Assembly (NCBI GenBank): GCA_025454815.1
Contig: JALONR010000007.1
Span: 2,445-66,444 of the forward strand
Direction: 5' to 3'
Length of the DNA stretch: 64,000 nt
Source: Bacteroidales bacterium
GTDB taxonomy: Bacteria > Bacteroidota > Bacteroidia > Bacteroidales > VadinHA17
The stretch's first letter is position 1, and each line of letters starts with the position of its first letter. Both the position numbers and the translations under genes were made by a program. The notes beneath the pieces were generated by a model. The model was not told the origin of the DNA. It worked only from the letters and a program-made list of their open reading frames with translations, and made no database searches. This document shows positions 35,634 through 51,040 of the stretch, in pieces.

Positions 35634-35653
35634 GACTGAACAACCTTAATAAT

Positions 35654-36823
35654 ATGAATGAGAAAAAAATCGAGATGAGACTGGTGACGCCGGTGCTCCT
35701 CTCCTTCTTTGTGATGAGTTTTGTAGACCTGGTGGGAATCGGCAAGGACAGGGTTGCAGGTGACCTGGGACTAAGTGACTTCATCCTGGGACTTATACCA
35801 TTCGCTGCCTTCGTCTGGTTCTTCATCCTTTCCGTACCCGTTGGAATCATACAGGCCCGGGTAGGCAAAAGGAAGATGCTGAACATCGGTATGATCATTA
35901 CCGGGGTGGGGCTTTTCATACCCTATTTCTTCTATAACTTTGTGACTGTGATTGCAGGCTTCGCCCTGCTGGGAATAGGGAATACCATTGTGCAGGTCTC
36001 AGCAAACCCACTCCTGGTGGATGTGGTGCCTGGGCGCAGAGCCTCAAGTTTCCTCAGCTTTTCACAGTTCATCAAAGCCATAGGCTCAATGCTGGCAGCC
36101 CCGCTGGCAGCTATGCTCGCAAGCCGCTTCGGCGACTGGAAGCTTCTTTTCCTGGTTTACGGCATAATTTCATTCCTCAGTGTTCTCTGGCTGGGAACTG
36201 TAAAAATAGAGGAGAGCGCCGCAACGGAAACCAAGGCCTCAATGGCTTCAGCCTTCAGGTTGCTGGGCAATTCATACATCCTGATGATGGTGCTTTCAAT
36301 ATTCCTTGTCGTCGGGATTGATGTGGGGTTCAACTATTTCTCGGGTAAATACCTTGCAGCAAGGTTTGGCTTTGAGGAGGTAACCGCACAATCCGGACGC
36401 AGCGTCTATTTCTTCGGACGTATGCTGGGCACATTCGCGGGAGCGCTTATCCTTACAAAACTCTCCTCCACAAGGGGTTTTCTCTACAGTGCAATCCTGT
36501 CAATCGTTACTATCCTGCTGATCATGATCATCCCTGTGTCGAAGGGTGCAGCCTGGATACTTGTATTCCTCATCGGCCTCGGAGTGGCAAATATCTTTCC
36601 TCTTGTCTTCTCACTTACGGTACAGAGATACCCTGAGAGGAGCAATGAGATCTCCGGCCTTATGATGATGGCCATTTCAGGAGGCGCACTGATACCACCC
36701 CTCATGGGCCTTGTAAGCGATGCAATGGGGGTGGTGCCTGGTATGGGGGTGTTGCTGCTCTGTGCTGCTTACCTGCTTGTTGTGTCGTGGATCATTATCA
36801 GAAAGAAGATTGTCAACATCTGA
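35654..36823 (+). CDS. MFS sugar transporter (FucP/GluP-like)
   Basis: 12-TM hydrophobic profile with IGNTIVQVSANPLL, typical of the FucP/GluP subfamily. Confidence 0.8.
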   Translation: MNEKKIEMRLVTPVLLSFFVMSFVDLVGIGKDRVAGDLGLSDFILGLIPFAAFVWFFILSVPVGIIQARVGKRKMLNIGMIITGVGLFIPYFFYNFVTVIAGFALLGIGNTIVQVSANPLLVDVVPGRRASSFLSFSQFIKAIGSMLAAPLAAMLASRFGDWKLLFLVYGIISFLSVLWLGTVKIEESAATETKASMASAFRLLGNSYILMMVLSIFLVVGIDVGFNYFSGKYLAARFGFEEVTAQSGRSVYFFGRMLGTFAGALILTKLSSTRGFLYSAILSIVTILLIMIIPVSKGAAWILVFLIGLGVANIFPLVFSLTVQRYPERSNEISGLMMMAISGGALIPPLMGLVSDAMGVVPGMGVLLLCAAYLLVVSWIIIRKKIVNI

Positions 36824-36889
36824 TTCATGGGGCTGACAGGCAACTGCCCCACTGCCCTGTTCTTTGTAAATAATTAAAAAAGTGAAATC

Positions 36890-38413
36890 ATGAAGCGAAT
36901 CATTCCCGTTTTCATGCTGCTTCTCCTCTGGTCATGCACCAGGCAGGAGCCGTTGCGGCCGAACATCATCTACATCATGACGGATGACCATGCCTACCAG
37001 GCGGTCGGAGCCTACGGAAGTGAAATCAACAGTACACCCAACCTTGACCGTATTGCTGATGAGGGAATTATCTTCCGCAACAGCTTTGTGTGCAATTCAA
37101 TATGTGCTCCAAGCAGGGCGGCGCTCCTGACCGGAAAGCACAGCCATGCCAACGGCCATACTGACAACAGGGCCAGGTTTGACAGCTCACAGGTTACCTT
37201 TCCAAAATTGCTTCAGCAGGCCGGATATCAGACTGCAATTATAGGCAAATGGCACCTGAAGAGTGAACCGACAGGATTTGACTACTGGAGCATTCTGCCG
37301 GGTCAGGGGAGCTACTATAATCCTGATTTCATAGAGGCGGGCCGCACCTACCGTCAGACAGGCTATGCCACCACAATCATTACGGACAAGGCCATAGAGT
37401 GGCTGCAGAAGAGAGATACTGCCAGACCGTTCTGCCTCCTGGTGCATCACAAGGCTCCCCACCGCAACTGGATGCCTGATACCCTTGACTTTGATCTGTT
37501 TGACGGTGCCGAATTCCCGGTACCGTCCACCTACTTTGATACCTATGAGGGGAGGCAGGCGGCCGCCCTCCAGGAGATGAGTGTCATAAAGGACATGCGG
37601 TTGTCATCTGACCTCAAGATCACCGGCGCCGACGGTGACTCCCTTTCCCGGACCGAAAAGGACTACCTCTGGTATCTCAACCATCGCATGACTCCGGAAC
37701 AGAGAAAGGCATGGATGAAAGAGTATGACAGCATCAGCAGTGCTTTCCTCGCTCACAGGCCCGAGGGTGACTCCCTGGCTCTGTACAAACTGAACAGGTA
37801 CCTTACAGACTATCTGCGGACGATTGAATCGGTTGACCGGAACACCGGCAGGCTCCTGGATTACCTCGAATCAGCCGGGCTGATGAAGAATACCCTTGTG
37901 ATCTATACTTCTGACCAGGGCTTTTATCTCGGAGAACACGGCTGGTTCGACAAGCGATTCATGTACGAGGAGTCGTTCCGAACGCCATTGCTGATGCGTC
38001 TGCCTGAACCGCTCTCCGCACACGGTGACATAACGGAGATGGTTCAGAATATTGACTTCGCACCCACTTTCCTCGAGCTTGCCGGTGTGGAACCCCCGGC
38101 TGAGATGCAGGGAGTCTCCCTGGTCCCGCTCCTTAGGGGACATAAACCTGGAAACTGGCGTGATGCCCTTTATTACCATTATTACGAGTATCCTGCTGAG
38201 CACGCGGTGAGAAAGCACTACGGCGTTCGCACCGACAGGTATAAACTGATCCATTTCTATGATGAGATCGATGCGTGGGAACTCTTTGACCTCCAGGCAG
38301 ACCCTCATGAAATGCATAACCTGATTGACGATCCTGCCTATGAGAAGGTGGAACGGCTCCTCAGGAAGAAACTGGCTGCCCTGAGAAAAGAGTACAGGGT
38401 GCCGGAAGAATAA
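36890..38413 (+). CDS. S1-family sulfatase lipoprotein (N-acetylglucosamine-6-sulfatase-like)
   Basis: Lipobox LLLWSC, IIYIMTDDHA, and the formylglycine motif CAPSRAALLTG. Confidence 0.9.
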   Translation: MKRIIPVFMLLLLWSCTRQEPLRPNIIYIMTDDHAYQAVGAYGSEINSTPNLDRIADEGIIFRNSFVCNSICAPSRAALLTGKHSHANGHTDNRARFDSSQVTFPKLLQQAGYQTAIIGKWHLKSEPTGFDYWSILPGQGSYYNPDFIEAGRTYRQTGYATTIITDKAIEWLQKRDTARPFCLLVHHKAPHRNWMPDTLDFDLFDGAEFPVPSTYFDTYEGRQAAALQEMSVIKDMRLSSDLKITGADGDSLSRTEKDYLWYLNHRMTPEQRKAWMKEYDSISSAFLAHRPEGDSLALYKLNRYLTDYLRTIESVDRNTGRLLDYLESAGLMKNTLVIYTSDQGFYLGEHGWFDKRFMYEESFRTPLLMRLPEPLSAHGDITEMVQNIDFAPTFLELAGVEPPAEMQGVSLVPLLRGHKPGNWRDALYYHYYEYPAEHAVRKHYGVRTDRYKLIHFYDEIDAWELFDLQADPHEMHNLIDDPAYEKVERLLRKKLAALRKEYRVPEE

Positions 38414-38428
38414 TAAAAAGACCCGAAA

Positions 38429-39697
38429 ATGTCAGAAAATTCATTGAAGAGAAGAGATTTTATCAGGCGCGGGGCTGTTGCCGGTGCCGCACTTACAATT
38501 ATACCAAGGCATGTGCTTGGCGGCAGGGGTTACCTGCCCCCGAGTGACCAGCTGACAAAGGGTATCGTCGGTGTCGGGGGAATGGGACTGGGGCATTTCA
38601 ATTATGAAAACACGCGCCTCCTTGCCGTTTGTGATGTCGATGCATCACACCTGCAGAGGGCCCTTGACAGGGCTGGCAGCGGGGTTAAGGGTTACCGCGA
38701 TTTCCGGGAACTGATATCGAGGCCTGATATAGACATAGTCCATATTGCCACTCCGCCTCACTGGCATGGCGTGATAGCAAGCTTGGCCGCCGGTGCCGGA
38801 AAGGATATCTGGTGTGAAAAACCAATGACCCGCACCATCGGAGAAGGGAAAAGCCTGGTTGAGGCAGTCAAGGCAAACGGGAGGATGTTCAGGCTGAATA
38901 CATGGTTTCGATTTACCGGGCAATTCTACGGCCTGGGTACTACAGTGAAACCGTTGAAAAAGATTGTCGCCAGCGGTATACTCGGATGGCCGCTGAAGGT
39001 GACCATCAGCGGTATTACCGGCTATGACTGGAAATTCTACTGGAGCGGAAAAACTGACCTTCAGCCCGAACCGGTTCCCGGCGGCCTCGATTATGACATG
39101 TGGCTGGGGCCGGCACCATACAGACCATACAACAAACTCAGGGTTCATGAGAACTTCCGGGGATACTGGGATTATGACGGGGGAGGCCTCGGCGACATGG
39201 GGCAGCACTATATTGACCCCGTGCAGTACCTTCTTGACAAGGACCACACCAGCCCCGTTTCCGTGGAGGTTGACGCCCCGCAGCAACACTATGACGCAGT
39301 CGGATCATGGCGAAGGATTACCTATACATACGATGACGGCTGCCAGATAATCCTTGACGGTGAAAACCGCGATAAGGATGCAGCCTATATAGAAGGCCCT
39401 CACGGAAAAATATACAAGGGTTTCCTTTCTGATATCCCGAACCTCCCTGAACTTGTAAGCAGGCTTCCGGATCCGGAGCCACAGGTAACAATCTTTTCCG
39501 AGTCTGTCAGGACAAGGAAGCAGTTCGCCCTTAACGAGGAGAATGGCCACCGGTCATGCACCATAGTAAACATGGGCGTTGTGGCCCTCCGGCTGGGAAG
39601 GAACCTGAAATTTGACCCCGTCAGGCAGCTCTTCATCGGAGATGACGCCGCCAATGCACTCATAGAACAGCCTATGAGAGGTGAATGGCATATGTAA
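38429..39697 (+). CDS. Gfo/Idh/MocA-family oxidoreductase with twin-arginine signal
   Basis: TAT signal KRRDFIRRGAVAGAALTI, a Rossmann N-terminal domain, and the CEKPM motif. Confidence 0.88.
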   Translation: MSENSLKRRDFIRRGAVAGAALTIIPRHVLGGRGYLPPSDQLTKGIVGVGGMGLGHFNYENTRLLAVCDVDASHLQRALDRAGSGVKGYRDFRELISRPDIDIVHIATPPHWHGVIASLAAGAGKDIWCEKPMTRTIGEGKSLVEAVKANGRMFRLNTWFRFTGQFYGLGTTVKPLKKIVASGILGWPLKVTISGITGYDWKFYWSGKTDLQPEPVPGGLDYDMWLGPAPYRPYNKLRVHENFRGYWDYDGGGLGDMGQHYIDPVQYLLDKDHTSPVSVEVDAPQQHYDAVGSWRRITYTYDDGCQIILDGENRDKDAAYIEGPHGKIYKGFLSDIPNLPELVSRLPDPEPQVTIFSESVRTRKQFALNEENGHRSCTIVNMGVVALRLGRNLKFDPVRQLFIGDDAANALIEQPMRGEWHM

Positions 39698-39717
39698 TAA
39701 CGGAGATACAGTATATC

Positions 39718-42700
39718 ATGAACAGACTCATAAATCTTTTGACAGTTGCGGCATTGCTGCTTGTCACCACTTCTCTTTCCGCCCAGGATTTGAGAACTCC
39801 GGGAACAAAGGTGGCCGACCTGCTGGCAGGAATGCCGGCTGACAATCTTGAGCTTGCCTCCCGCCTGATGGAGGAAATGTATTCACTGGGAGAAGAAGGT
39901 TGGGCAATGATCTGCGGACAGGTGGTTCCTGCAGGCACAGGTGACGATGTAAGGGCCCGGTATGCAATTTCGGCTCTGACTGCCCACCTCTCGGCTGACA
40001 CTGATGAGACCAGGAAACGTCAATGGGAGGAACAGTGTATTCATTTTATGAAAAGGGCCCCTGACAGGGAGGTGAAATCATTTTTTATGAGACAGCTAAA
40101 CCTCATTGGATCGGAGCTGGCCGTCAAAGAACTGGCTGACTATGTCAACTCTGCAGATATATGTGATGATGCCGTTATCGTACTGCAGTCGGTTGGAACC
40201 GAAGCTGCTGCCGACCTTCTTTATTCTGCCCTGAAGGACGATGATTGTCCGTGTGCTGCCCAGGCTATGGTGGCCCTGGCAGAGACTCATCCCGGGAAAT
40301 CGACTGAGATCTTTAAGCAATGGTATGCCAGGGGAAGTGTTTCAGAAAAATCAGCCGCTCTGTATGCCATTGCATCCACCGGTATCCCTGAAGCTAACGA
40401 TTTTCTTGCAAGTGCTGCTGCCGCTGCCTCCTACCGTTGGGAACAGACAGGTGCTGTTCAGGCTCTCCTGCTGTATGCAAAAAAAATCGGACTCGCAGGT
40501 GAGGTAAAGAAAATGGAACGAATAGCAAGACAGGTGATTGATGCAAGCATGACACCTGAGACTGCCAGTCAGAGACTTGCTGCAATGAGCGTTATCACTG
40601 CTGTCAAGGGGAGCGGTGCCCTGGGCATGCTGCTGGATGCTGCGGCTGACCCGGATGTGGCCATCAGGGGAGGTGTGTTGCGTCTGGCTTCAGGGATATC
40701 CGGCAGCGAGGCTACCATGAAATGGATAAAAAGATATTCAAAGGTCTCGCCCCCTGCAAAGTCCGGGATACTTTACATGCTTGGCGAAAGAGGAGATCAG
40801 CTGGCGGTGCCTTTGATGATGAAGGCACTTGATGACCCCTCCCCGGAAGTATCTTCTGCGGCCGTCTCCGCCCTGGCCCGCCTGCAGGGACCGGGAGCTG
40901 TTGAGCCGATCCTTTCATGGATACTGAAATATGACCGGGAGCAGGGACACCGTATCGCCTCAGAGGCACTGACTGCCATACTTGACAGTACAGGCATGCG
41001 TAAGGTAGCTGCCGTACTGCCGGCATCAAAAGGGCTGTCAACAGTAACTCTTGTCAGGCTGATGGCATGGTCTGGCGACAAGAAATACTTCAGGGATGTT
41101 TTCCCGTATACCTCATCACCTGATTATGGTATCAGGGCGGCCGCCATTACCTCACTTGCAGCACTGGCCTCCTATAATGACCAGCCTCAGATCATTGGGC
41201 TTCTTGAGACAACCGGCGAGAAGGCAGAGGTGACTGAACTGCAGCGTGCAGTTCTTGCCGCTGCAATGCAACATAATGACCCTTCAGCAAGATCGGCACT
41301 GATTCTTGAAGCCATGGACAAGAGCCGTGACAGGTTGAAGCTGATCCCTCTGCTGTCAGCTACCGGAGGTGAGGAGGCGCTGAAACGGGTTGCAACAGAG
41401 TTTGAAAACGGCGACGCCATTACACGGGATGTCTGTTTTGATGTTCTGACCCACTGGAAAGACATCTCATCAGCCGGGATATTGCGCGCGATAACCGCTT
41501 CAGGGAACAAGACCTTCGGTATGCCGGCCTTCGATGCATACATGAGAATGGTTTCTGCTGCCAGACTGAATCCCGAACGAAAGCTTCTGATGATTAAGGA
41601 TATGGCACCGTATGCCGCAGATCCCGGCGCCAGGGCGGGAATGGTTGCCCTGGCCGGCTCCCTTGAAATGCGGCAGGCGGAATTTTTTGTCACCCCTTAC
41701 CTTTCTGACCCTTCGGAGGAGGTGAGGACAGCGGCAAAAGAAGCAATTCAATCACTCAACCTGCCCGACGATGAATTGTTCGGATCAATGTTCAACGGCA
41801 CTGACCTTACCGGCTGGAAGGGGCTGGTGGGTACCCCGCTGACCAGGGCTGCCATGAAACCAAAGGAACTGGCTGCCAGGCAGAAGGAGGCTGACCGGAA
41901 GATGCTTGAAAACTGGAGCGTGAGGGATGGCATGATCTGGTTCAGCGGAGAGGGTGATAACCTGTGCAGCATCAAGGAATATGGTGATTTTGAGATGTAT
42001 GTCGACTGGAAGATAACCAGGGGAGGAGACAGCGGCATTTACCTCCGCGGGACACCACAGGTGCAGATCTGGGATACATCACGGACTGACGCAGGAGCAC
42101 AAGTGGGGTCGGGAGGTCTGTACAACAACCAGGAGAACCCGTCAGTTCCACTTAAAGTTGCTGATAATCCGGTGGGGGAATGGAATACCTTCAGGATACT
42201 GATGATGGGAGATAAGGTAACTGTCTGGCTCAACGGAGACCTGGTAACTGACGATGTCATCCTGGAAAACTACTGGGACAGGTCGCTTCCGGTATTCAGG
42301 AAGGGGAGCGTAGAGCTTCAGGCCCATGGAACTGACCTTGTCTTCAGGGATTTATACATCAGGGAGATCAATACGGCTGAGTATAACCTGACAGAGAAGG
42401 AGAAGGAGGCAGGTTTCATCTCACTGTTCAACGGCAGGAACCTCGATGGGTGGATCGGCGACAAGGTTTCATATGCAGTTGAAGATGGTACGATTGTCAT
42501 CAGACCCGGTAACAGCGGAGGCGGAAATCTCTACACCGCGAAGGAGTACTCTGATTTCATCTTCCGGTTCGAGTTTCAGCTTACCCCCGGGGCAAATAAC
42601 GGACTCGGGATCCGGACCCCGCCTGAAGGTGATGCCGCATACGCGGGGATGGAGATACAGATTCTTGATAACACAGCATCGATATATTCAGACCTTGCAC

Positions 42701-42984
42701 CATACCAGTATCACGGTTCTGTTTACGGTGTAATACCGGCCAGGAGGGGGTTCCTCAGGCCGGTGGGTGAATGGAATTACGAAGAGGTGACTGCGGAGGG
42801 AACAAAAATAAAAGTGGTTCTTAACGGTGCTGTCATAGTCGAAGGTGACATAGCGGGTGCCATCGCTAACGGTACCCTGGACGGCAGGGAACACCCGGGA
42901 CTGAAGAACAAGAGCGGACATATAGGGTTTCTGGGACATGGCACGATTGTCAGATTCAGGAATATCCGAATCAGGCAACTGTGA
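39718..42984 (+). CDS. exported HEAT-repeat protein with two C-terminal DUF1080 (3-keto-disaccharide hydrolase-like) domains
   Basis: Signal peptide MNRLINLLTVAALLLVTTSLSAQ, then ~680 aa of Ala/Leu-rich HEAT-like repeats. Two DUF1080 copies follow (FNGTDLTGWKG...FRDLYIREI and FNGRNLDGWIG...FRNIRIRQL). Confidence 0.85.
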   Translation: MNRLINLLTVAALLLVTTSLSAQDLRTPGTKVADLLAGMPADNLELASRLMEEMYSLGEEGWAMICGQVVPAGTGDDVRARYAISALTAHLSADTDETRKRQWEEQCIHFMKRAPDREVKSFFMRQLNLIGSELAVKELADYVNSADICDDAVIVLQSVGTEAAADLLYSALKDDDCPCAAQAMVALAETHPGKSTEIFKQWYARGSVSEKSAALYAIASTGIPEANDFLASAAAAASYRWEQTGAVQALLLYAKKIGLAGEVKKMERIARQVIDASMTPETASQRLAAMSVITAVKGSGALGMLLDAAADPDVAIRGGVLRLASGISGSEATMKWIKRYSKVSPPAKSGILYMLGERGDQLAVPLMMKALDDPSPEVSSAAVSALARLQGPGAVEPILSWILKYDREQGHRIASEALTAILDSTGMRKVAAVLPASKGLSTVTLVRLMAWSGDKKYFRDVFPYTSSPDYGIRAAAITSLAALASYNDQPQIIGLLETTGEKAEVTELQRAVLAAAMQHNDPSARSALILEAMDKSRDRLKLIPLLSATGGEEALKRVATEFENGDAITRDVCFDVLTHWKDISSAGILRAITASGNKTFGMPAFDAYMRMVSAARLNPERKLLMIKDMAPYAADPGARAGMVALAGSLEMRQAEFFVTPYLSDPSEEVRTAAKEAIQSLNLPDDELFGSMFNGTDLTGWKGLVGTPLTRAAMKPKELAARQKEADRKMLENWSVRDGMIWFSGEGDNLCSIKEYGDFEMYVDWKITRGGDSGIYLRGTPQVQIWDTSRTDAGAQVGSGGLYNNQENPSVPLKVADNPVGEWNTFRILMMGDKVTVWLNGDLVTDDVILENYWDRSLPVFRKGSVELQAHGTDLVFRDLYIREINTAEYNLTEKEKEAGFISLFNGRNLDGWIGDKVSYAVEDGTIVIRPGNSGGGNLYTAKEYSDFIFRFEFQLTPGANNGLGIRTPPEGDAAYAGMEIQILDNTASIYSDLAPYQYHGSVYGVIPARRGFLRPVGEWNYEEVTAEGTKIKVVLNGAVIVEGDIAGAIANGTLDGREHPGLKNKSGHIGFLGHGTIVRFRNIRIRQL

Positions 42985-43012
42985 TTTTTTTTAGTCATGC
43001 CCCGGCAGCGGG

Positions 43013-43031
43013 TTATCAACGAATTATCAAC
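43013..43031. promoter_or_regulatory. direct repeat TTATCAAC x2 (11-bp phase) upstream of the EPS operon
   Basis: TTATCAAC occurs at 43013-43020 and 43024-43031. Related GTTATCAGC and GTTATATTA copies lie at 43112-43129. Confidence 0.3.
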
Positions 43032-43160
43032 AAATGTCAAATTGAGGCCTTCAATATTTTGCAGGAGCCGCAAAAAGAGCCATTTTTGACCCTCGGACAC
43101 AAATCGGATCTGTTATCAGCGTTATATTAAAAGCATCTGGGCTAAAGGAATTGACAAGGG

Positions 43161-43523
43161 ATGAAAATACTTATCTGTGAAGATAATCAGTTGGCTGCCA
43201 GGGCAATGTCTGTTGTCATTGAACGGGAGGGATATGATCCAGTGACTGTTGGTGACGGAAACAGGGCCATTGAAATACTAAAAAAGACTGATTTTGACCT
43301 GGTGATTATTGACATTCACATCCCCTATCACAGCGGCCTGGAGGTGGTAAGGTTCCTTCGCACGGAGCTGAAAAGGCAGACCCCGGTACTGGTAGTGTCG
43401 GCCTTCAGCGATCCTCAGATGCAGCGCCAGGCGGGTGAAATGAAGGTCAGCGGTTATATAACCAAACCTTTTGACCCGGATGATCTTCTCAGGAAAATCA
43501 GGGCCGCACTGGCAGTTGTTTAG
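43161..43523 (+). CDS. stand-alone response-regulator receiver (CheY-like)
   Basis: Acidic pocket ICEDN, phospho-acceptor LVIIDIHIP and conserved Lys in ITKPF. 120 aa with no output domain. Confidence 0.9.
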   Translation: MKILICEDNQLAARAMSVVIEREGYDPVTVGDGNRAIEILKKTDFDLVIIDIHIPYHSGLEVVRFLRTELKRQTPVLVVSAFSDPQMQRQAGEMKVSGYITKPFDPDDLLRKIRAALAVV

Positions 43524-43526
43524 ACG

Positions 43527-44618
43527 ATGGATTATAAGATACCTATAAGATTTCTTTTGCTGACGGTCATGTTTGTCATGACAGCAGGATCGTTATTCTC
43601 ACAGACCATAACTAACCCCGAGGAGGAGTACTCAAGGATCCGTTCGCTGGCGTTTGACGGCAGGTATGAGGAAGCGGAGCCGGCCGCCCTTCAGCTGGTG
43701 AGGGAATACCCTGAGTTCGGCGATGCACGTGTGCTCCTTGGCCGTATCCTGGCCTGGCAGGGGAAGTATGACGAGGGTGCAGCAGTGATTGACACCCTCC
43801 TGGTGTCTGACCCTGACAACAGCGATGCCCTGGAGGCAATTACCGATATCAGGCGATGGTCCCGCGACAGGTCACAGCAGGTCACGGCTCCGACAGATAT
43901 TAGGGCAGGCTATTCGTTTGATGCTTACAATGAGCCTTATGAACGGTTATGGCAGGTCTTCAGCCTGGGAGCAGGACATCGGTTCTCATGGGGTACTGCA
44001 GTTGCATCGGTTAACTACGGACACCTGAATACAGGTCCTCCTTCGGACACCACCGGCAATGATTTCCAGTTTGCCGCCGAAGCATGGCCCGAGCTTACTC
44101 CAAGAAATTATGCCTATGTTGCCTATGCATTCAGCGATGGTCCGTGGTTCCCCCGGCACAGGGCAGCCCTTGAACTGTGGCAGACACTCCCTGCAGGACT
44201 GGCTGTCTCTGCGGGCGTCAACTATTACTATTTTGATAATAGCATCTTCATCGGCACATTCTCCCTGGAGAAATACTTAAGCCGGTACTGGTTCTCGGGA
44301 AGAGCCTATTTCCATTTCAAGGAGATTGGAGTAACAACATCATTCTTCCTTACTGCAAGGAGATACCTCGGCACAACCGATTATCTTCAGCTTACAGTGG
44401 GTACCGGTACAGCTCCCGATGAACCGTATGATATACTGACAGACCTTGAACGACAGAAGGCATCTTCTGCCAGGCTCACCTGGTTCAACCAGATCAATAC
44501 ATGGTGGTCAGTAAGAATCGGTGCAGGCTATTCTTACGAGAAATACAATGCAACCTCATCCCGCAACCGGTTTGAAGGGAATGTCGGAATAATAAGAGGT
44601 ATCGGACGACCTGAATGA
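43527..44618 (+). CDS. TPR plus outer-membrane beta-barrel protein (YaiO/NfrA-like)
   Basis: Signal peptide, TPR-like helices (aa 30-115), then alternating amphipathic strands. The block FQFAAEAWPEL...YAYVAYAFSDGPWFPRHRAALELW resembles the YaiO family as I remember it. Confidence 0.65.
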   Translation: MDYKIPIRFLLLTVMFVMTAGSLFSQTITNPEEEYSRIRSLAFDGRYEEAEPAALQLVREYPEFGDARVLLGRILAWQGKYDEGAAVIDTLLVSDPDNSDALEAITDIRRWSRDRSQQVTAPTDIRAGYSFDAYNEPYERLWQVFSLGAGHRFSWGTAVASVNYGHLNTGPPSDTTGNDFQFAAEAWPELTPRNYAYVAYAFSDGPWFPRHRAALELWQTLPAGLAVSAGVNYYYFDNSIFIGTFSLEKYLSRYWFSGRAYFHFKEIGVTTSFFLTARRYLGTTDYLQLTVGTGTAPDEPYDILTDLERQKASSARLTWFNQINTWWSVRIGAGYSYEKYNATSSRNRFEGNVGIIRGIGRPE

Positions 44619-46354
44619 GAATGACGCTGACCATATTGATGGCTCTGGCTGCAAGCACTGTCACCCTGCAGGCTTCCAATACTACTGAAGAAAGCCGGAC
44701 TGATTCCATGCGCTCCCCGGAAACGGAATCTGCAGTCCCTGTCCTTTCAACATTCCCTTCAGAGCTTACCGTCGGCGGACTCGTTTCACTGGCAAACGGG
44801 CACTATGCCATCCAGATGGGTGCATTCGGCAGACGTGCCAATGCAGAGGCGCTGGGCAGGAAGATTTCTGAATTGTCAGGTCTCCCTGTTGATGTCATAG
44901 AGGATGGTGGCCTGTTCAAGGTATTCATAAACAGTGCACTGAGAGGCGGGGCGCCATGCCTTTACATACCGGTGCAATTCCAGGGTGAAATGGGAAGTAG
45001 CACTCCGCCTGACAATGAGTCCGGGAAGTCAGTTCCTGAGCCTGCAGTAAAGACTGAAAACGTGGTGCCGCCAGTCACATCAACAGTGAATGGGCAGGAT
45101 ACAATCACCCTGGCTTCAGCTGACAGACCAGCTTCCGTACCTGACACTGAAGTCATCCCTGCATCGGATATGCAGGGGGGACAGCAGGTGACTGCTCCGG
45201 ATGAAGAAGAACCTGCAGGAACACAAACCGCAAAACCAGGGATAAGGAACCTCTTTTTTCTCCGGGGAGACAGCCCCTGGCTTAACCGCTATAATTACTT
45301 CGGCAAATCTGTTGCCCTGGTAAATGCATTGATTTTTGCCATACTGGCATCCTTTGCCACTATGCTGATACTTCTCCTCGTCATCCTGCTCAACAGGCGC
45401 AGGATGGAAAGGGAGGCGAAACTGAGACAATATCTTCTTGAGCAGTACCAGTCACTGATAATCGATTACCTGTTCGGTAGCAGCAGTGCAGAACCGTTCA
45501 GGAAAATAGCATCGGATAACTACCGCAGGCAGGTGCTTATAGATCAGATGATTGACGTCAGCGTTAACCTTAAAGGTGATTCACGTGACAAGCTTATGAA
45601 GCTCTACATGGATCTTGAGCTTGACAGTGACTCACTGGCAAGGGCCCGCAGCCGTAGGTGGCACAAAAAAATCAAGGGTTTTCGCGAGCTGGCCTTCATG
45701 GGTATCAGGGAGGGCAATGATGAGATGTACAAGGTCCTCAACTCCAGGAATGAGATACTGAGAATGGAAGCGCAGATTGCACTGGTGAGGCTCAGCGAAA
45801 ATGACCATTTCGATTTTCTGTCACAGCTGAGGAGACCCTTCTCCCTGTGGGAGCAGATAACGCTTCATGACCTTATCATTCAGCATGAGCTGCCTGTTCC
45901 TGATTTTCAGAGATGGCTTTCTTCCGAAAACCCGACGGTGGTGATGTTTGCCCTCAGGATGATCAGGGAGTTCAGGCAGAAGGAGGCCGAGCCCGAGATC
46001 AGGAAAGTGCTGCTTCACAGGGATGCCCGTGTGAGCAGGCTGGCAGTTGAGGTAGCGGGTGACCTTGACTTGCGGACAACCCTGGATACAATGAAGCGCA
46101 TGTACAAGTTCCAGGAGTACAACAACTGCCTGGAAATAGTGAGATCAATGGGCAAAATGCCCGAAACATCCATGCTGGGATTCCTCAAGCTGGTGCTTGA
46201 CAAGGAGGATGATGTGCAGCTTCAGATAGAGGCTGTGAAGGCCATCGAGAACATGGGAGAGGTGGGAGTGCAGGCCCTTGTCAAGGTGATGAAATCAGAG
46301 TACAAGAATTATAACATCATAGTCAGGCACGTGCTTGACCGCAGGATATACTGA
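44615..46354 (+). CDS. SPOR-domain / single-TM / cytoplasmic HEAT-repeat protein
   Basis: Signal peptide, SPOR motif HYAIQMGAFGRRANAEALGRKISELSGLPVDVIEDGGLFKVFI, a Pro/Thr-rich linker, TM helix ALVNALIFAILASFATMLILLLVILL, then ~300 aa of HEAT-like repeats. Confidence 0.75.
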   Translation: MRMTLTILMALAASTVTLQASNTTEESRTDSMRSPETESAVPVLSTFPSELTVGGLVSLANGHYAIQMGAFGRRANAEALGRKISELSGLPVDVIEDGGLFKVFINSALRGGAPCLYIPVQFQGEMGSSTPPDNESGKSVPEPAVKTENVVPPVTSTVNGQDTITLASADRPASVPDTEVIPASDMQGGQQVTAPDEEEPAGTQTAKPGIRNLFFLRGDSPWLNRYNYFGKSVALVNALIFAILASFATMLILLLVILLNRRRMEREAKLRQYLLEQYQSLIIDYLFGSSSAEPFRKIASDNYRRQVLIDQMIDVSVNLKGDSRDKLMKLYMDLELDSDSLARARSRRWHKKIKGFRELAFMGIREGNDEMYKVLNSRNEILRMEAQIALVRLSENDHFDFLSQLRRPFSLWEQITLHDLIIQHELPVPDFQRWLSSENPTVVMFALRMIREFRQKEAEPEIRKVLLHRDARVSRLAVEVAGDLDLRTTLDTMKRMYKFQEYNNCLEIVRSMGKMPETSMLGFLKLVLDKEDDVQLQIEAVKAIENMGEVGVQALVKVMKSEYKNYNIIVRHVLDRRIY

Positions 46355-46359
46355 ATACC

Positions 46360-47778
46360 ATGGGATTTATCTTTGCACATCTGATATTCTACCTGACCCT
46401 CGTACTCTTCGGGTCATACCTGCTGCTCGGCATACACTCAGCACTGGCGCTGAGGAAGTACCTGCGCAAGAACAGTTATGTAAACTACAACTCACTGGTG
46501 CTCTCTCCCCTCAGCCCGAGGATCACCATCATTGCACCTGCATTCAATGAGGGTAAAACCATCATTGACAACGTCAGGACACTGCTCTCGCTCTATTATA
46601 ACAACTTTGAGGTGATAATAGTGAATGACGGCTCAACCGACGGCACATTTGAAAAGATAAGGGATGCCTATGAGCTGGTCAGGGTTAACTACTACTTTGA
46701 CTACCGCATCCCGTGCGAGAGAATCAGGGGAGTTTACAGGTCAAAGGATCCCGCATACAACAGGCTCACGGTAATTGATAAAAACAACGGCGGCAAGGCT
46801 GATTCACTCAATGCCGGAATCAATATCAGCCGCAGCAACCTTATCGTTACAATTGATGCCGATTCGATTATTGAGCCCGATTCAATTCTCAAACTGGTCA
46901 AACCATTCCTTGAGGAGAAGGAAAAGAAGGTCATCGGCACTGGCGGAGTGATCCGCATTGTCAACTCATGTGACATTGAACGAGGCCATATCAGGCAGAT
47001 AAACCTTCCGAAGAAATTCCTGCCCAGACTCCAGGTTCTTGACTACACGCGTGCATTTCTGCTTGGCCGCATGGCATGGAGCCACCTCGACGGACTTATG
47101 CTTATCTCAGGCGCCATGGGTATGTTTGACCGCGAGACGGTCATCAGGGCCGGCGGCTATAATGTCAAGACCGTGGGCGAGGATATGGAACTGGTGCTGA
47201 GAATGCGGCGCTACATGGCTGAACATAAACAAAAGTACGAAGTCACCTATATCCCTGACCCTCTCTGCTGGACAGAGGTGCCTTCTGACCTGAAATCAAT
47301 GCGTAAGCAGCGTACGAGGTGGACAAGGGGCCTGATAGAATCACTCTGGTCACACCGGAAGATGATGCTGAATACCCGTTACGGAAGGCTGGGATTGCTC
47401 GGTTATCCTTACTGGCTCTTATTTGAATGGGCTGCTCCTCTAATAGCTTTCCTTGGTATTGTTTATTCGATCTACCTGGCTGTTTCGGGCGCCCTTAACT
47501 GGCCATTCTTCCTGCTCCTCTTCCTGTTCGTGTACAGCTTTGCGGTGAGCCTGACAACCTGGGCCGTACTGTTTGAGGAGATCACATTCCACAAATACAG
47601 GAGAAAACGGGATGTTCTGAGGCTTATCGGCACAGCGATGCTCGAACCGTTCTTCTATCCGGTTCATACCTACTTCGCCGTAAGGGGTAACCTTGAGTCC
47701 CTGCGTGGTAAGAAGGGATGGGGCAAAGCCGAAAGAAGCGGATTCCAGAATAAAAAGAAGACAGGTACTGCCGTCTGA
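46360..47778 (+). CDS. processive family-2 glycosyltransferase (PgaC/IcaA/NfrB/YaiP-like polysaccharide synthase)
   Basis: Motifs VNDGSTDGT, TIDADS, VGEDMEL and RKQRTRWTRG (QxxRW), with N- and C-terminal TM helices. Confidence 0.88.
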   Translation: MGFIFAHLIFYLTLVLFGSYLLLGIHSALALRKYLRKNSYVNYNSLVLSPLSPRITIIAPAFNEGKTIIDNVRTLLSLYYNNFEVIIVNDGSTDGTFEKIRDAYELVRVNYYFDYRIPCERIRGVYRSKDPAYNRLTVIDKNNGGKADSLNAGINISRSNLIVTIDADSIIEPDSILKLVKPFLEEKEKKVIGTGGVIRIVNSCDIERGHIRQINLPKKFLPRLQVLDYTRAFLLGRMAWSHLDGLMLISGAMGMFDRETVIRAGGYNVKTVGEDMELVLRMRRYMAEHKQKYEVTYIPDPLCWTEVPSDLKSMRKQRTRWTRGLIESLWSHRKMMLNTRYGRLGLLGYPYWLLFEWAAPLIAFLGIVYSIYLAVSGALNWPFFLLLFLFVYSFAVSLTTWAVLFEEITFHKYRRKRDVLRLIGTAMLEPFFYPVHTYFAVRGNLESLRGKKGWGKAERSGFQNKKKTGTAV

Positions 47779-47790
47779 GGACTATACCAG

Positions 47791-50508
47791 TTACTCCACA
47801 AAATCCGGGATGGATGACAGTCCCTCCTCAATGATATGAAGTGATGCCTTTTCGCGCTCCTCAGTCGGCGGAACGACAAGCCACTTTGGCCAGCTGTACC
47901 TGTTCATTGTGTTGGTGACCACCCCCCTGTGCCATACTGAGACTGCAATACCGTCAGACGGTGTTGTGATTATCTCGAAGTTATACCCTCCGTCATATGA
48001 TACAGCTCCGTCATTTACCGTCATCTGTGTGGGGTCAAAGAAATGGAGCATGGTCCATGGAAGCCTGATTGTTATCTTTCTGCCGTTCCAGGCAACAGCT
48101 GCCCTGTTCCCTTCCGTGAATCCCGTGGCATGTTCAACGGGAACCATCCCGATGTCATGGTAGGTGAATTCAAATCCGTCATTGGTCCATCTCATCACCT
48201 TCCAGGGGGCACCGTCAGTGTTTGTGCTCCTGAACTGCTGCTCCGGTTCAGTGAGATTGAACCGCACTGTAAGGCCGTTCATATCATATGCCTCTGTCAC
48301 GTGATGCAGTGCCGTGTCATCCTCAAGGGTGAATGTAAGCAAAAACTCTGCCCTGTTGCCTGCGGTAATGCCTCCGGGCAGGGTTGACTCTCCTGTATTG
48401 CCCCGGTAGGTGTCGAATGCCACCATGAATTCATCTGTCGGAACGAGATCGGCTGCAGTGTTTATGTCAAGATAGAGGAATCCTTCGTCATGTGTGGCCC
48501 TGACCGAGCTCAATGGCCCTGCAGGCTGATCCGTGATGTAAGGAACGAAATCAGGCCTCTCTTTCTGTTCGAATGCGAGCAGGCCGAAGCACTGCTCCGG
48601 TGATGTCTCATTGTGCCAGAGCTGCCGGGTAGGGATTGTCTCCCCGCCCGAACTGATGCCGTAAGCCTCCTGGTAGAGTACTATCCATGTCCGCTTGAAC
48701 CATTCATCCATCCACGCAAACATAAACCCTCCGGCACACCCGGCGTCCAGCATGTTATTCATCATCCGCATGTTCTTTTCACCCTGTTGTATTTCAGAGT
48801 ATCCTCCATGGTGCATGGAGCTGTAAGACTGGTGGGCGCTGCCCCAGCTGGAGGGTACGCCGAACTCGGCTATCACCAGCGGCATATCCGAATAATGATT
48901 CTTCATTGCGGTGAGATAGCCAAGGTAACTGTTGGGTCCCTGGCTGTCACTGTATAACAGGTATGAAGGCTCCTGGCTGATGAAGTTCGGATAATACGGA
49001 TAGGCATGATAGCTTGCAAACAGCCCCGGACCTCCGTTGCGGGTTATCCTGGTGATATCAAATGACGCTACATCTTCGTCGGTGTAGATCTCGGTGGGGT
49101 GCTCCAGCGGGTCAAGGGTTGGCCAGCTTGAAAAGCTTACAGGCCTGCTGGATGAATACTCGTTTTCCTCAAATACAACCACCCTGTCGAGCATCTCGGT
49201 AACGAAAGCCTCCGAGGCACTCCGGCCGGTGATGCTGAATCGGGTACCGGAATAGGAAATGCTTCCGGGGTGGAACTTATTGGTAGTATCTATCTCCTGG
49301 GGAGCCACCTCCCGGCCAATGATATAACCTGCTGTCCATTGTGAGACATCGGTTTTGTAGATACCGTAGGATTTGCCGTACCTGAAGGCAATGTCGGCGT
49401 TCCCGTGGATACAGTCTATCACTTCTGCTATCTCCGAACTGAAGGCCTGCCGGCGCCTTATGAGATCATAACTTAAGGGATCCGTGCCGTCCTCCACCTC
49501 CTCGAGCCAAATACCCTGGAAGAGCAGAAGGGGCCTTCCGGGATGACGCTGGTTGTACTCGGCCAGCTTTTCATAGAAGACAGGGGGATGGAGGGTGTAT
49601 ACCCTGACGGTGTTGAATCCTGCTTCTGCCATCCGTCTGATCCATCTCTCATAAGTCTCAGCGGTGATTGCATATGCAATCTCGCCCGGAAAGTACCCCG
49701 GCGGTGATGAACCGAGATTGACACCCTTTAGTATCATCGGTTCATAATCATTTTCGATGAACCTGGCAATATAATTTCCGGCCACGGTAAAGGGCATCGG
49801 GTTGCTTGCCGTAAGCACGAAGTCAATTATCGTGTCAGCAGCAAGGGTAATGTCAGTGAGCCTGACGGGATAAAAGCCCCGGGCTGATACCTCTGCGGTT
49901 ACCGGAAAACGAAGCGAAGGCTCAGTAAGGGGTTCACCGGGCGGAAGCATCACCGGTTCCAGCCCGCTTCCGGAGGAGATCGATCCCTCTGAGGAAGCCT
50001 TGACCAGCCTGCCGCTGTAAGACCTTCCCCTGAAGGCGATGGCATAGATGTACAGCCCGGCACTCATCGGAGCATTATTCTGCCCGCAGCCGTCCCATAC
50101 AACATTGTAACTCCCCGCCGTTACATCCGGGAAAACCATTATCCTTACCTTCTCCCCGGCCAGGTTGTAAATGGTGAGCATCACATCTCCGGAAGTGTTG
50201 ATAATAAATGGAATATTTACGCTGTTGTCGAATGGATTGGGATATGGAGTGCCCGCCACGAAATCGCCTGCCACATCGCTGTAAGATCCAGTTATCTTGA
50301 CCGAGTATCTTCCGTCAGTACCTGTTGATACCCTGAACTCCCTGGAGTTCAGAAAGAAAGAGACTCCGGCATTCATTATGGGAGATCCTTCGCGGTCTGA
50401 TACGGTACCGGTAACCGTCACGTCACCGGCAAGGGCGGTAGCATTAAGGGCAAGTAAGATTACAGCGCTGATAAACAATTGTATACGTTGCCTGGCCATG
50501 CTGATCAT
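47791..50508 (-). CDS. secreted multidomain glycoside-hydrolase-like protein (clan GH-A TIM barrel) with CarboxypepD_reg-like and FlgD-Ig/T9SS-CTD-like domains near the N-terminus
   Basis: Signal peptide MISMARQRIQLFISAVILLALNATALA (start could be 50508, 50499 or 50556). The Ig-like block is YPNPFDNSVNIPFII...LTIYNLAGEKV...GLYIYAI. The TIM barrel shows ILKGVNLG, GYIIGREV and LVIAEFGVPSS. Confidence 0.75.
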   Translation of the reverse strand: MISMARQRIQLFISAVILLALNATALAGDVTVTGTVSDREGSPIMNAGVSFFLNSREFRVSTGTDGRYSVKITGSYSDVAGDFVAGTPYPNPFDNSVNIPFIINTSGDVMLTIYNLAGEKVRIMVFPDVTAGSYNVVWDGCGQNNAPMSAGLYIYAIAFRGRSYSGRLVKASSEGSISSGSGLEPVMLPPGEPLTEPSLRFPVTAEVSARGFYPVRLTDITLAADTIIDFVLTASNPMPFTVAGNYIARFIENDYEPMILKGVNLGSSPPGYFPGEIAYAITAETYERWIRRMAEAGFNTVRVYTLHPPVFYEKLAEYNQRHPGRPLLLFQGIWLEEVEDGTDPLSYDLIRRRQAFSSEIAEVIDCIHGNADIAFRYGKSYGIYKTDVSQWTAGYIIGREVAPQEIDTTNKFHPGSISYSGTRFSITGRSASEAFVTEMLDRVVVFEENEYSSSRPVSFSSWPTLDPLEHPTEIYTDEDVASFDITRITRNGGPGLFASYHAYPYYPNFISQEPSYLLYSDSQGPNSYLGYLTAMKNHYSDMPLVIAEFGVPSSWGSAHQSYSSMHHGGYSEIQQGEKNMRMMNNMLDAGCAGGFMFAWMDEWFKRTWIVLYQEAYGISSGGETIPTRQLWHNETSPEQCFGLLAFEQKERPDFVPYITDQPAGPLSSVRATHDEGFLYLDINTAADLVPTDEFMVAFDTYRGNTGESTLPGGITAGNRAEFLLTFTLEDDTALHHVTEAYDMNGLTVRFNLTEPEQQFRSTNTDGAPWKVMRWTNDGFEFTYHDIGMVPVEHATGFTEGNRAAVAWNGRKITIRLPWTMLHFFDPTQMTVNDGAVSYDGGYNFEIITTPSDGIAVSVWHRGVVTNTMNRYSWPKWLVVPPTEEREKASLHIIEEGLSSIPDFVE

Positions 50509-50656
50509 TCTGCAAAAAATATTGATGATGAATAGCTGTTTCCCCAAATGTAGCATAAACAGGTGTTAATTTCCCCGGAATTTTTCAACATAGGCGGGGG
50601 ATTTGTCTATATTGGAGGAAATCCATAAATTTATACTCTGCTGCCGGTTCACATAT

Positions 50657-51040
50657 ATGGAAAAAATAGACATCAAGGAGACCTCCAAAACCCCGTCGGT
50701 AAATTTTGATCCTGAGCGCGGATTGTTTGAAATGCGTGGCAAGTCAATACCCGAGAACTCAAACAGCTTCTATAGTCCGCTGCTTCAATATGTGGAAAAG
50801 TATGGCGGCAAGCCTGCCGAAAGAACCATTCTCAATGTGAGGTTCGAGTTTTTCAATACCAGTTCTTCAAACAGGATACACGCGCTTTTCAGACGTTTTG
50901 AAAGGATCTACCTAGCTGACAGTGACGTGCTTATCAGATGGTATTGCGAGAACGGCGACGATAACATGCGTGATGCCGGGAGGGACTTCAAGGCCATCCT
51001 GCAGGTCCCGTTTGAAATAGTCGAAGTTGATGAACTCTGA
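50657..51040 (+). CDS. DUF1987 / SiaC-like regulatory phosphoprotein
   Basis: Contains MEKIDIKETSKTPSVNFDPERGLFEMRGKSIPENS and FEFFNTSSS, which matches my memory of the DUF1987 family. 127 aa from the ATG at 50657. Confidence 0.75.
   Translation: MEKIDIKETSKTPSVNFDPERGLFEMRGKSIPENSNSFYSPLLQYVEKYGGKPAERTILNVRFEFFNTSSSNRIHALFRRFERIYLADSDVLIRWYCENGDDNMRDAGRDFKAILQVPFEIVEVDEL

Follow-up and report, generated by a model that had tools for sequence, protein, structure and literature searches.

A candidate synthase-dependent polysaccharide system of Bacteroidales that combines a GT2 synthase with a HEAT-repeat membrane protein, a YaiO-type barrel, and an orphan receiver

What does a processive polysaccharide synthase do in the company of an orphan response regulator, a small outer membrane barrel, and a HEAT-repeat membrane protein? 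We addressed this question for a five-gene locus of an uncultured Bacteroidales bacterium, which lies within a 64,000-nucleotide stretch of DNA (GCA_025454815.1, contig JALONR010000007.1, positions 2,445 to 66,444; hereafter, the window). We think it fairly probable that the five genes encode a system for polysaccharide synthesis and export that follows the synthase-dependent logic of Pga and Bcs and is assembled from parts not described for such systems. We read the locus in this way because its components are those on which synthase-dependent secretion is built: a processive family 2 glycosyltransferase (GT2), a partner in the membrane, a TPR-barrel protein of the outer membrane, and a glycosidase of the periplasm. 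The overall design is familiar; the component set is not described in the literature that we searched for such systems, nor did this search return any Bacteroidota system of the synthase-dependent kind with a HEAT or SPOR partner or with a receiver.

A six-frame list of open reading frames (ORFs) placed the five genes exactly where the original prediction, made from the DNA letters of the window, had put them. The features of the locus are as follows (aa, amino acids; nt, nucleotides; TM, transmembrane; AF2, AlphaFold2; GH, glycoside hydrolase):

42985..43160, + strand: leader and presumed promoter region, 176 nt, 5' of the receiver gene
43161..43523, + strand: receiver (REC), 120 aa, an orphan single-domain response regulator (Pfam Response_reg)
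43527..44618, + strand: TPR-YaiO outer membrane protein, 363 aa (Pfam YaiO and TPR_16/TPR_19; TIGR04390)
44615..46354, + strand: SPOR-TM-HEAT protein, 579 aa (Pfam SPOR and HEAT_2; AF2)
46360..47778, + strand: processive membrane GT2 synthase, 472 aa (Pfam GT2 families; motifs)
47791..50556, - strand: clan GH-A/GH2-like hydrolase, 921 aa as an ORF (AF2 and Foldseek)
47759..47776, - strand: hairpin and T-tract, a possible terminator of the convergent hydrolase transcript (terminator scan)

At base level, the tight packing claimed for the four plus-strand genes was borne out: 3 nt separate the REC and barrel genes (TAG-acg-ATG, 43521-43529), the barrel and SPOR-TM-HEAT genes overlap by 4 nt (ATGA, 44615-44618), and 5 nt separate the SPOR-TM-HEAT and GT2 genes (TGA-atacc-ATG, 46352-46362). 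The same holds for the spacing of the convergent hydrolase gene, whose stop (47791) is separated by 12 nt from that of the GT2 gene (47778). Scans with Pfam and NCBIfam matched the domains that had been expected of all four plus-strand genes.

Conservation of the five genes and distant versions of the system

We scanned relatives using one genome per species and obtained 80 loci, all from Bacteroidales metagenome-assembled genomes (MAGs), in which the GT2 was 81-100% identical to that of the window; it was 100% identical in a MAG labeled 'uncultured Rikenella sp.' (L046). All five genes were found in the order and orientation of the window in 67 of 67 fully covered loci, which represent different Bacteroidales species, and in the remaining 13 of the 80 a contig end fell exactly at the place of the missing gene. 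Synteny of the GT2 orthologs with the REC, barrel, and SPOR-HEAT genes had been set beforehand as a test of the original prediction, and these loci passed it. The flanks of the window, on the other hand, were kept only in the closer half of the loci (a HEAT/3-keto-disaccharide-hydrolase protein upstream; SiaC-like, SpmAB-like, and YebC genes downstream), and the more distant half had DUF5916 upstream and GNAT downstream. Because the order was kept in 67 of 67 loci while the flanks differed between subclades, we take the five genes to be a bounded, selected unit. Across the 80 species, GT2 identity never fell below 80%, while that of the other four genes fell to 50-57%.

Further afield, a profile search of a 50%-identity cluster library recovered 1,483 representatives of the TM-HEAT family, of which 286 had E ≤ 1e-30. 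These matches span the TM and HEAT part, and the N-termini vary: among 91 diverse members, HEAT_2 was found in 88, SPOR in 16, and LysM in 7, and the N-terminal domain could also be absent. We sampled nine distant TM-HEAT contexts, with ~22-33% identity to the clade representative. A GT2-type gene lay immediately downstream of the TM-HEAT gene in all nine, and these GT2s were 45-66% identical to that of the window (measured in seven of the nine), even where the HEAT partner was at ~30%. YaiO was present in six of the nine contexts, as was a receiver gene upstream (L087, L089/L090, L091, L092, L094, and L095). The gene orders were:

L087: REC-Hpt, REC, TPR/YaiO, SPOR/HEAT, GT2
L091: the L087 arrangement plus an extra 345-aa gene
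L092: x392, x117, REC, TPR/YaiO, HEAT, GT2
L093: x392, YaiO, HEAT, GT2
L088: YaiO (without TPR), HEAT, GT2
L089/L090: REC, SPOR/HEAT, GT2
P0399 contig: SPOR/HEAT, GT2
L094: receiver-like gene (cut at the contig start; 69% identical to the Segetibacter REC), HEAT, GT2
L095, the cultured Segetibacter aerophilus: GH2 (divergent); REC, HEAT, GT2, sulfatase-superfamily enzyme; convergent x392 and LysM+TPR+YaiO

The receivers of L087, L089, L091, and L092 scored ~87-107 bits against the clade REC profile, compared with ~55 bits for the adjacent REC-Hpt, and on these scores REC is a specific ortholog that travels with the system. The HEAT protein of Segetibacter is named LysM-containing by UniRef, and the Segetibacter barrel protein itself carries LysM. 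We consider a wall tether to be a selected rather than obligatory feature, since two unrelated peptidoglycan-binding modules, SPOR and LysM, are used at the same position. As judged from these comparisons, the invariant core is the TM-HEAT and GT2 pair, with SPOR exchangeable with LysM or absent. Conserved gene order shows the TPR+YaiO barrel, the orphan receiver, and, in the clade of the window, the GH-A/GH2-like hydrolase to be genetically locked to this pair. Named carriers were Bacteroidota, Bacteroidia, and Marinifilaceae MAGs and Segetibacter; by this sampling the system is present in at least two Bacteroidota classes, which makes it broader than first noted, and its edition in the window is specific to the clade.

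Two further protein families were observed at the distant loci. The x392/x394 family (~392 aa, membrane-anchored, 29-47% mutual identity) was seen at L087:11703-12887, L092:4313-5491, L093:5506-6684, and L095:13289-14467. Sequence and profile searches found no Pfam or PDB relative of it. The window and its clade lack this family and carry the GH-A protein in its stead, and the window hydrolase profile did not match any of the no-Pfam neighbors (x345 to x394) of the distant loci. In Segetibacter, a 680-aa protein of the sulfatase/alkaline-phosphatase superfamily (L095:11262-13304) overlaps the GT2 stop by 23 nt. BcsG, LtaS, OpgB, and EptA belong to this superfamily, and by analogy the protein may decorate the polymer. 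A canonical GH2 gene and a GH16 gene flank the Segetibacter locus.

The five proteins

The synthase matched the GT2 families of Pfam, and its motifs D90GSTD, D166AD, G273ED, and Q317RTRW were conserved at 96% or more at each position among 81 orthologs. The original description of a processive membrane GT2 is thereby upheld, and by its motifs the protein belongs to the processive membrane-embedded class of PgaC, BcsA, HAS, and NodC. Hydrophobic stretches were seen by eye in the translation at aa 4-31 and ~340-445. Its best NCBIfam match was PgaC_IcaA (TIGR03937), at 131.7 bits against a curated cut-off of 422.3, and its closest characterized relative was E. coli PgaC (25% identity, E 6e-27), which, like the window synthase, matches Chitin_synth_2 weakly in Pfam. 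On these scores, the protein is PgaC/IcaA-like but not a PgaC/IcaA equivalog. E. coli YaiP was 28% identical over 225 aa (E 3e-13); cellulose synthases were very distant (CelA, 33.5 bits in NCBIfam; BcsA structures, E ~1e-4), and sequence comparison detected no similarity to NfrB. No sugar-nucleotide gene was found within the module. We also observed that a conserved insertion of ~25 aa in the GT2 (aa 105-134, VNYYFDYRIPCERIRGVY...) splits its Pfam GT2 match.

The SPOR-TM-HEAT protein had been described as a periplasmic SPOR domain, one TM helix, and a cytoplasmic HEAT solenoid, and Pfam, AF2, and Foldseek all agreed with this description. SPOR (PF05036) matched at E 9.4e-7 (29.5 bits against a gathering score of 21), with Q67, G69, A70, and F71 invariant, and HEAT_2 matched at E 6e-11. 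The AF2 model (35 sequences; predicted local distance difference test [pLDDT] score 67) comprised a signal helix, a SPOR-like domain at ~aa 60-118, a disordered linker of ~100 residues (122-227), a TM helix (228-287), and an alpha-solenoid (293-573). The SPOR-like domain was modeled at aa 65-118 as a compact beta-alpha-beta-beta-beta unit (pLDDT 79-89), without the second helix of the full SPOR fold, and keeps the invariant Q-x-G-A-F strand. We place the C-terminal side in the cytoplasm because a single long TM helix is followed by NRRR. Foldseek of the 579-aa model, a check proposed with the original prediction, returned only generic ARM/HEAT proteins (ARM, alphaRep, importin-alpha), in keeping with an ARM/HEAT solenoid, and sequence and profile searches of the PDB gave generic HEAT matches only. 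The last 60 residues were nearly invariant.

The 363-aa protein consists of a signal peptide, a TPR region at ~aa 30-115, and a YaiO-type barrel at ~aa 122-357, as had been proposed. TPR_16 and TPR_19 of Pfam matched the TPR region. The barrel matched Pfam YaiO (PF19413) at E 3.7e-36 and 125.2 bits against a threshold of 23.9 (E. coli YaiO itself scores 92.7 bits), and NCBIfam TIGR04390 at 95.9 bits against a cut-off of 32; with both curated thresholds exceeded, the sequence assigns the protein to the YaiO barrel family. Direct comparison of the barrel with E. coli YaiO, PgaA, and NfrA by phmmer, BLASTP, and hhalign gave nothing significant, so the link to YaiO is made by the Pfam and NCBIfam family models. 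Sequence and profile searches of the PDB returned generic TPR matches and no relative of the barrel part. We counted ~14 amphipathic beta segments in the barrel by hand on the sequence. Distant orthologs of the barrel end in F (FTF, YYF, YPF), which is presumably the beta-signal of outer membrane proteins; the window clade has 4-5 residues beyond the last strand. The signal peptide (43527-43610) ends in ...LFS, directly before a Gln that is conserved at the predicted +1 position in orthologs. A conserved +1 Gln fits the Bacteroidota 'Q-rule' for signal peptidase I substrates. Our literature search for YaiO function gave no functional study among the 25 top-ranked of 65 papers that mention YaiO, most of which use the gene as a PCR marker.

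For the convergent gene, the original prediction of a clan GH-A-like hydrolase was supported at the level of modeled structure. Its ~550 homologs are named only 'hypothetical' or 'T9SS sorting domain-containing' (T9SS, type IX secretion system), and the main body has no Pfam match: no family, including the Glyco_hydro_2 models, was found at aa 200-921. Sequence and profile searches of the PDB with the hydrolase likewise gave nothing. The AF2 model (32 sequences, pLDDT 71.7) showed N-terminal beta-sandwiches, a core of (beta/alpha)8 type at ~aa 270-615, and beta domains at the C-terminus, and Foldseek against the PDB aligned it with GH2 beta-glucuronidases, LacZ, and beta-mannosidases (E ~1e-11, probability 1.0, ~10% identity). 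E416 comes after strand 408-414 (beta4), E564 sits at the end of strand 560-565 (beta7), and both are invariant in the 32 sequences; the modeled barrel, with Glu at the ends of strands 4 and 7, would thus place the protein in clan GH-A. In the only local hhalign match, VIAEFGV (E564) fell on IITEYGV of E. coli beta-glucuronidase (GUS), which we take to be the peptide holding the GUS nucleophile E504; the match was weak, with an overall E of 0.12 against UidA. We rejected assignment to CAZy family GH2 by sequence, given this E value and the lack of a Glyco_hydro_2 match.

The hydrolase ORF (to 50556) begins 17 codons upstream of Met18 (50505). We place the start probably at Met18, because homologs are ~905-908 aa long and a signal peptide follows this residue. 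A Por_Secre_tail/TIGR04183 match was located at aa 105-186 of 921 and not at the C-terminus; from its position, we read it as an Ig-like domain, not a sorting signal, and T9SS secretion was rejected. The signal peptide ends in ALA, before GD, without a lipobox, and the Sec-exported hydrolase is therefore most likely periplasmic.

The stand-alone receiver proved to be as described: the 120-aa protein matched Response_reg at E 9.4e-26 in Pfam, and the phospho-site residues E7, D8, D51, S/T80, Y99, and K102 were all invariant among 68 orthologs. To our knowledge, every well-studied Gram-negative synthase-dependent exopolysaccharide (EPS) system (cellulose, poly-N-acetylglucosamine [PNAG], alginate, Pel, Nfr) is switched by cyclic di-GMP (c-di-GMP). 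The original prediction had recognized no PilZ, MshEN, or GGDEF module, and Pfam and NCBIfam scans of the five module proteins confirmed that none is recognizable, although an unrecognized binding site may be present. No GGDEF protein was found within the window. Rfam gave no riboswitch or other RNA family in the leader or module at E ≤ 1, except for a spurious scaRNA. With no PilZ, MshEN, GGDEF I-site, or riboswitch match in Pfam, NCBIfam, or Rfam, we do not class this locus among the c-di-GMP-controlled EPS synthases.

That control might instead be by phosphorylation gained comparative support, in that an orthologous REC recurs at distant versions of the system and REC-Hpt occurs in two lineages; the mechanism itself is something we infer. 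Phospho-control would fit the first Bacteroidetes genomes surveyed, in which histidine kinases are numerous and diguanylate cyclases are lacking (PMC1183210). No histidine kinase adjoins the module in either subclade, and no DNA-binding regulator is conserved near it. The REC-Hpt proteins (251-252 aa) are encoded directly upstream of the single-domain REC at L087:5376-6134 and L091:4380-5135; they are homologous over their full length, with Hpt detected in L087 at the Pfam threshold, and no equivalent adjoins the REC of the window. The sole histidine kinase in the window, encoded 19 kb upstream of the module, is a sensor of the 7TMR-DISM type (21849-23945, - strand), a type associated with carbohydrate sensing.

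Known systems, a possible mechanism, and rival explanations

The locus shares with E. coli PgaABCD an inner membrane processive GT2 with D, DxD, (T/G)ED, and QxxRW motifs, a membrane partner of the synthase (PgaD there, TM-HEAT here), a TPR and beta-barrel outer membrane protein, and a periplasmic glycoside hydrolase, which is predicted here. It differs in that the GT2s are only 25% identical and the window synthase scores far below the equivalog cut-off. PgaA has PgaA_barrel (PF21197) and ~500 aa of TPR, whereas the window has a YaiO of ~235 aa and ~85 aa of TPR; the partner is a 579-aa SPOR-TM-HEAT protein instead of the 137-aa PgaD; the module lacks a carbohydrate esterase family 4 (CE4) deacetylase; and it includes a receiver gene, with no c-di-GMP module detected. 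Since a PgaB-type CE4 deacetylase, PgaA_barrel, and PgaD were all not found in the module, and the GT2 reached 131.7 bits against 422.3, we rejected membership in Pga.

The original prediction had likened the locus to nfrA-nfrB. E. coli NfrB-NfrA-YbcH constitutes the N4 glycan receptor system (PMC8669469). The operon logic is indeed shared, with a processive GT2, a TPR-barrel outer membrane protein, and a periplasmic accessory (YbcH there); the likeness does not extend to the protein families. NfrB, to which the window GT2 is not detectably similar, bears a C-terminal MshEN c-di-GMP receptor that the window GT2 lacks, the NfrA barrel is of the NfrA_C family and not YaiO, and Nfr has neither a HEAT partner nor REC. 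No MshEN, NfrA_C, or DUF4434 (YbcH) match was found on the window proteins, whereas the E. coli proteins do match, and Nfr membership was rejected. The cryptic E. coli yaiO-yaiX-yaiP-yaiS cluster is the only known case in which a YaiO-family barrel is encoded with a GT2. However, E. coli YaiO has no TPR region, and the cluster, which also encodes an IS2-disrupted acyltransferase and the putative deacetylase YaiS, lacks the HEAT partner, REC, and GH. BcsA-BcsB-BcsC-BcsZ resembles the locus in having a synthase with a single-pass periplasmic partner held by a TM anchor, a TPR-barrel porin, and a periplasmic glycosidase. In contrast, BcsA is activated via the PilZ domain to which it is fused, BcsB has neither a cytoplasmic domain nor a peptidoglycan-binding module, and the sequence relation is very distant.

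From the sequence comparisons we infer both the identity of the polymer and the mechanism of regulation, as follows. The GT2 would polymerize a beta-linked glycan from a housekeeping UDP-sugar, possibly UDP-GlcNAc, and would thread it through its own membrane channel. A beta linkage is suggested because GT2 enzymes are inverting and beta-glycosides are the main substrates of clan GH-A, and UDP-GlcNAc is possible because PgaC is the nearest relative and the products of the closest relatives are GlcNAc polymers. With its TM helix, the HEAT protein may pack against, complete, or stabilize the synthase, in the manner of PgaD or the BcsB anchor. The HEAT solenoid would then be a docking platform, at which the receiver, once phosphorylated by way of an unlinked kinase or phosphorelay, turns the synthase on or off; the receiver would thereby stand in the place that c-di-GMP occupies in the Pga, Bcs, Alg, Pel, and Nfr systems. 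Together with the long disordered linker, the SPOR domain could tether the complex to the wall, possibly at denuded glycan such as that of the septum. In the outer membrane, the TPR+YaiO protein (~14 strands by hand count) would take the chain and carry the polymer across, and the periplasmic hydrolase would trim or clear it, like BcsZ, PslG, or the C-terminal domain of PgaB.

In its strongest form, this proposal makes the locus a Bacteroidota class of synthase-dependent secretion in its own right, in which a phospho-receiver docks on the HEAT domain of a peptidoglycan-tethered co-subunit, a His-Asp phosphorelay replaces c-di-GMP, and export proceeds via a minimal YaiO-type porin; we offer this form tentatively and regard it as possible but doubtful. 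If it is true, YaiO proteins, among them that of the cryptic E. coli yaiO-yaiP cluster, would gain a first function. The module suggests a way in which a major phylum, with members in gut, sediment, and digesters, may build and control a matrix or surface polymer without c-di-GMP, and it offers testable roles for three orphan families: YaiO-type barrels, TM-HEAT proteins (~1,500 clusters at 50% identity), and unclassified GH-A-like hydrolases. The cultured carrier Segetibacter aerophilus makes these hypotheses directly testable.

Several observations weigh against a synthesis and export system of this composition. REC is missing from the visible context of three of the nine distant loci, and so is YaiO in three of nine; for this reason we consider both to be accessories and not obligate parts. 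The hydrolase is confined to the clade of the window, and other lineages carry the unrelated x392 protein. At its putative acid/base position the hydrolase reads G-R415-E416, invariant in the 32 sequences, in place of Asn-Glu, the usual dipeptide at this position in clan GH-A; with R-E instead of N-E, the protein might act on an unusual substrate or be a module for binding. Our PDB search found no solved structure of a YaiO-type barrel, and, at ~235 aa, the barrel is smaller than the 16-18-strand porins PgaA, BcsC, and AlgE, which makes it a putative conduit for the polymer at most. Both AF2 models are of moderate confidence (pLDDT 71.7 for the hydrolase and 67 for the SPOR-TM-HEAT protein).

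Could the locus be a divergent PNAG (Pga/Ica-type) system, with the GT2 as a PgaC ortholog making beta-1,6-GlcNAc, the barrel as a shortened PgaA, the HEAT protein as a substitute for PgaD, and the GH as a stand-in for the PgaB hydrolase? The synthase lends this idea some weight, with PgaC_IcaA as its best NCBIfam match, its 25% identity to PgaC (E 6e-27), and the weak Chitin_synth_2 match that the two share, and the lack of a dedicated sugar-nucleotide gene fits a UDP-GlcNAc substrate. However, 131.7 bits falls well short of the equivalog cut-off of 422, the barrel is of the YaiO family and not of PgaA_barrel, there is no PgaD homolog, and the hydrolase resembles GH2/GH-A enzymes, whereas we take the C-terminal domain of PgaB to be GH153. 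Moreover, a CE4 deacetylase is neither present in the module nor conserved alongside it, and PNAG export in E. coli needs the PgaB deacetylase; we therefore hold a PNAG system to be quite unlikely. The small size of the barrel and the absence of YaiO from the visible context of three of the nine distant loci would also suit a product that stays behind, namely, a periplasmic or wall-associated glycan made at sites of peptidoglycan remodeling such as the septum, with YaiO as an outer membrane anchor or a TPR scaffold and not as a conduit. Denuded septal glycan is the target of SPOR domains, and SPOR or LysM is repeatedly fused to the inner membrane partner and, in Segetibacter, LysM is fused to the barrel as well. 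Yet a TPR and beta-barrel protein next to a processive GT2 is an export module in every characterized Gram-negative synthase system, the YaiO gene overlaps the one that follows it and persists in six of nine distant contexts, and a periplasmic hydrolase is equally expected for exported polymers. A retained glycan thus seems to us improbable as well.

A different role is also conceivable for the receiver, which could be a phosphate sink or connector in a phosphorelay with transcriptional output, the HEAT domain being purely structural or a chaperone. Single-domain receivers often are phosphorelay intermediates or sinks, a REC-Hpt gene adjoins REC in two lineages, and the absence of REC from three of nine distant contexts implies that the synthase can exist without it. 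What makes this role unlikely, in our judgment, is that REC is the first gene of the very operon that it would regulate, that a specific REC ortholog co-travels with the HEAT-GT2 pair in at least two Bacteroidota classes, that no DNA-binding regulator is conserved nearby, and that the cytoplasmic HEAT surface is extremely conserved, as expected of a protein-docking site. Finally, the five genes might be accidental neighbors with unrelated functions. Short intergenic distances are common in compact genomes, and nothing further favors this idea, to which we assign almost no probability: order and strand are the same in 67 of 67 covered loci despite changing flanks, the HEAT-GT2 adjacency holds down to ~22-30% HEAT identity, and the comparative sequence data already refute it.

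Neighboring genes and minor observations

The genes of the window include rpoB/rpoC and genes for a hybrid-cluster protein, a glycyl-radical enzyme, and an Fe-hydrogenase; by this content, the window is chromosomal DNA of a strict anaerobe. We rejected an anti-phage defense function for the locus, as PADLOC gave weak generic REC matches only. Scans for sigma-70-type sites and intrinsic terminators gave counts equal to those of shuffled controls, and the scan does not cover Bacteroidota promoters. The minus-strand hairpin at 47759-47776 lies within the last codons of the GT2 gene, ~15 nt 3' of the hydrolase stop, and has a T-rich tail. It could end the convergent transcript inside the GT2 coding sequence; with such sites at chance level in the region, this is only a lead.

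Upstream of the module, 34689-42984 (+ strand) encodes a ROK kinase, an MFS transporter, an SGSH-type sulfatase, a GFO/IDH/MocA oxidoreductase whose N-terminus is twin-arginine-like, and a secreted protein of 1099 aa that contains HEAT repeats and two 3-keto-disaccharide hydrolase domains. This region looks sugar-catabolic and may encode a 3-keto-sugar pathway for a sulfated glycan. On the other side, a gene for a SiaC-family (DUF1987) regulatory phosphoprotein (50603-51040, + strand) is divergent from the hydrolase gene, and a SpoIIE/PP2C-type phosphatase gene (57329-58543, - strand) lies 6 kb away; a partner switch like that of SiaA/SiaC could be made up of the two products. Synteny of the SiaC gene was seen in 41 of the 80 loci, in closer relatives only, and the gene is therefore probably outside the module.

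In the more distant subclade (L047-L080), a gene for a 172-aa GNAT acetyltransferase is divergent from the hydrolase gene, with its start ~9 nt away, in 26 loci (e.g., L056:14235-14750), and a DUF5916 protein is encoded upstream of REC in 27 loci (e.g., L056:3813-5966).

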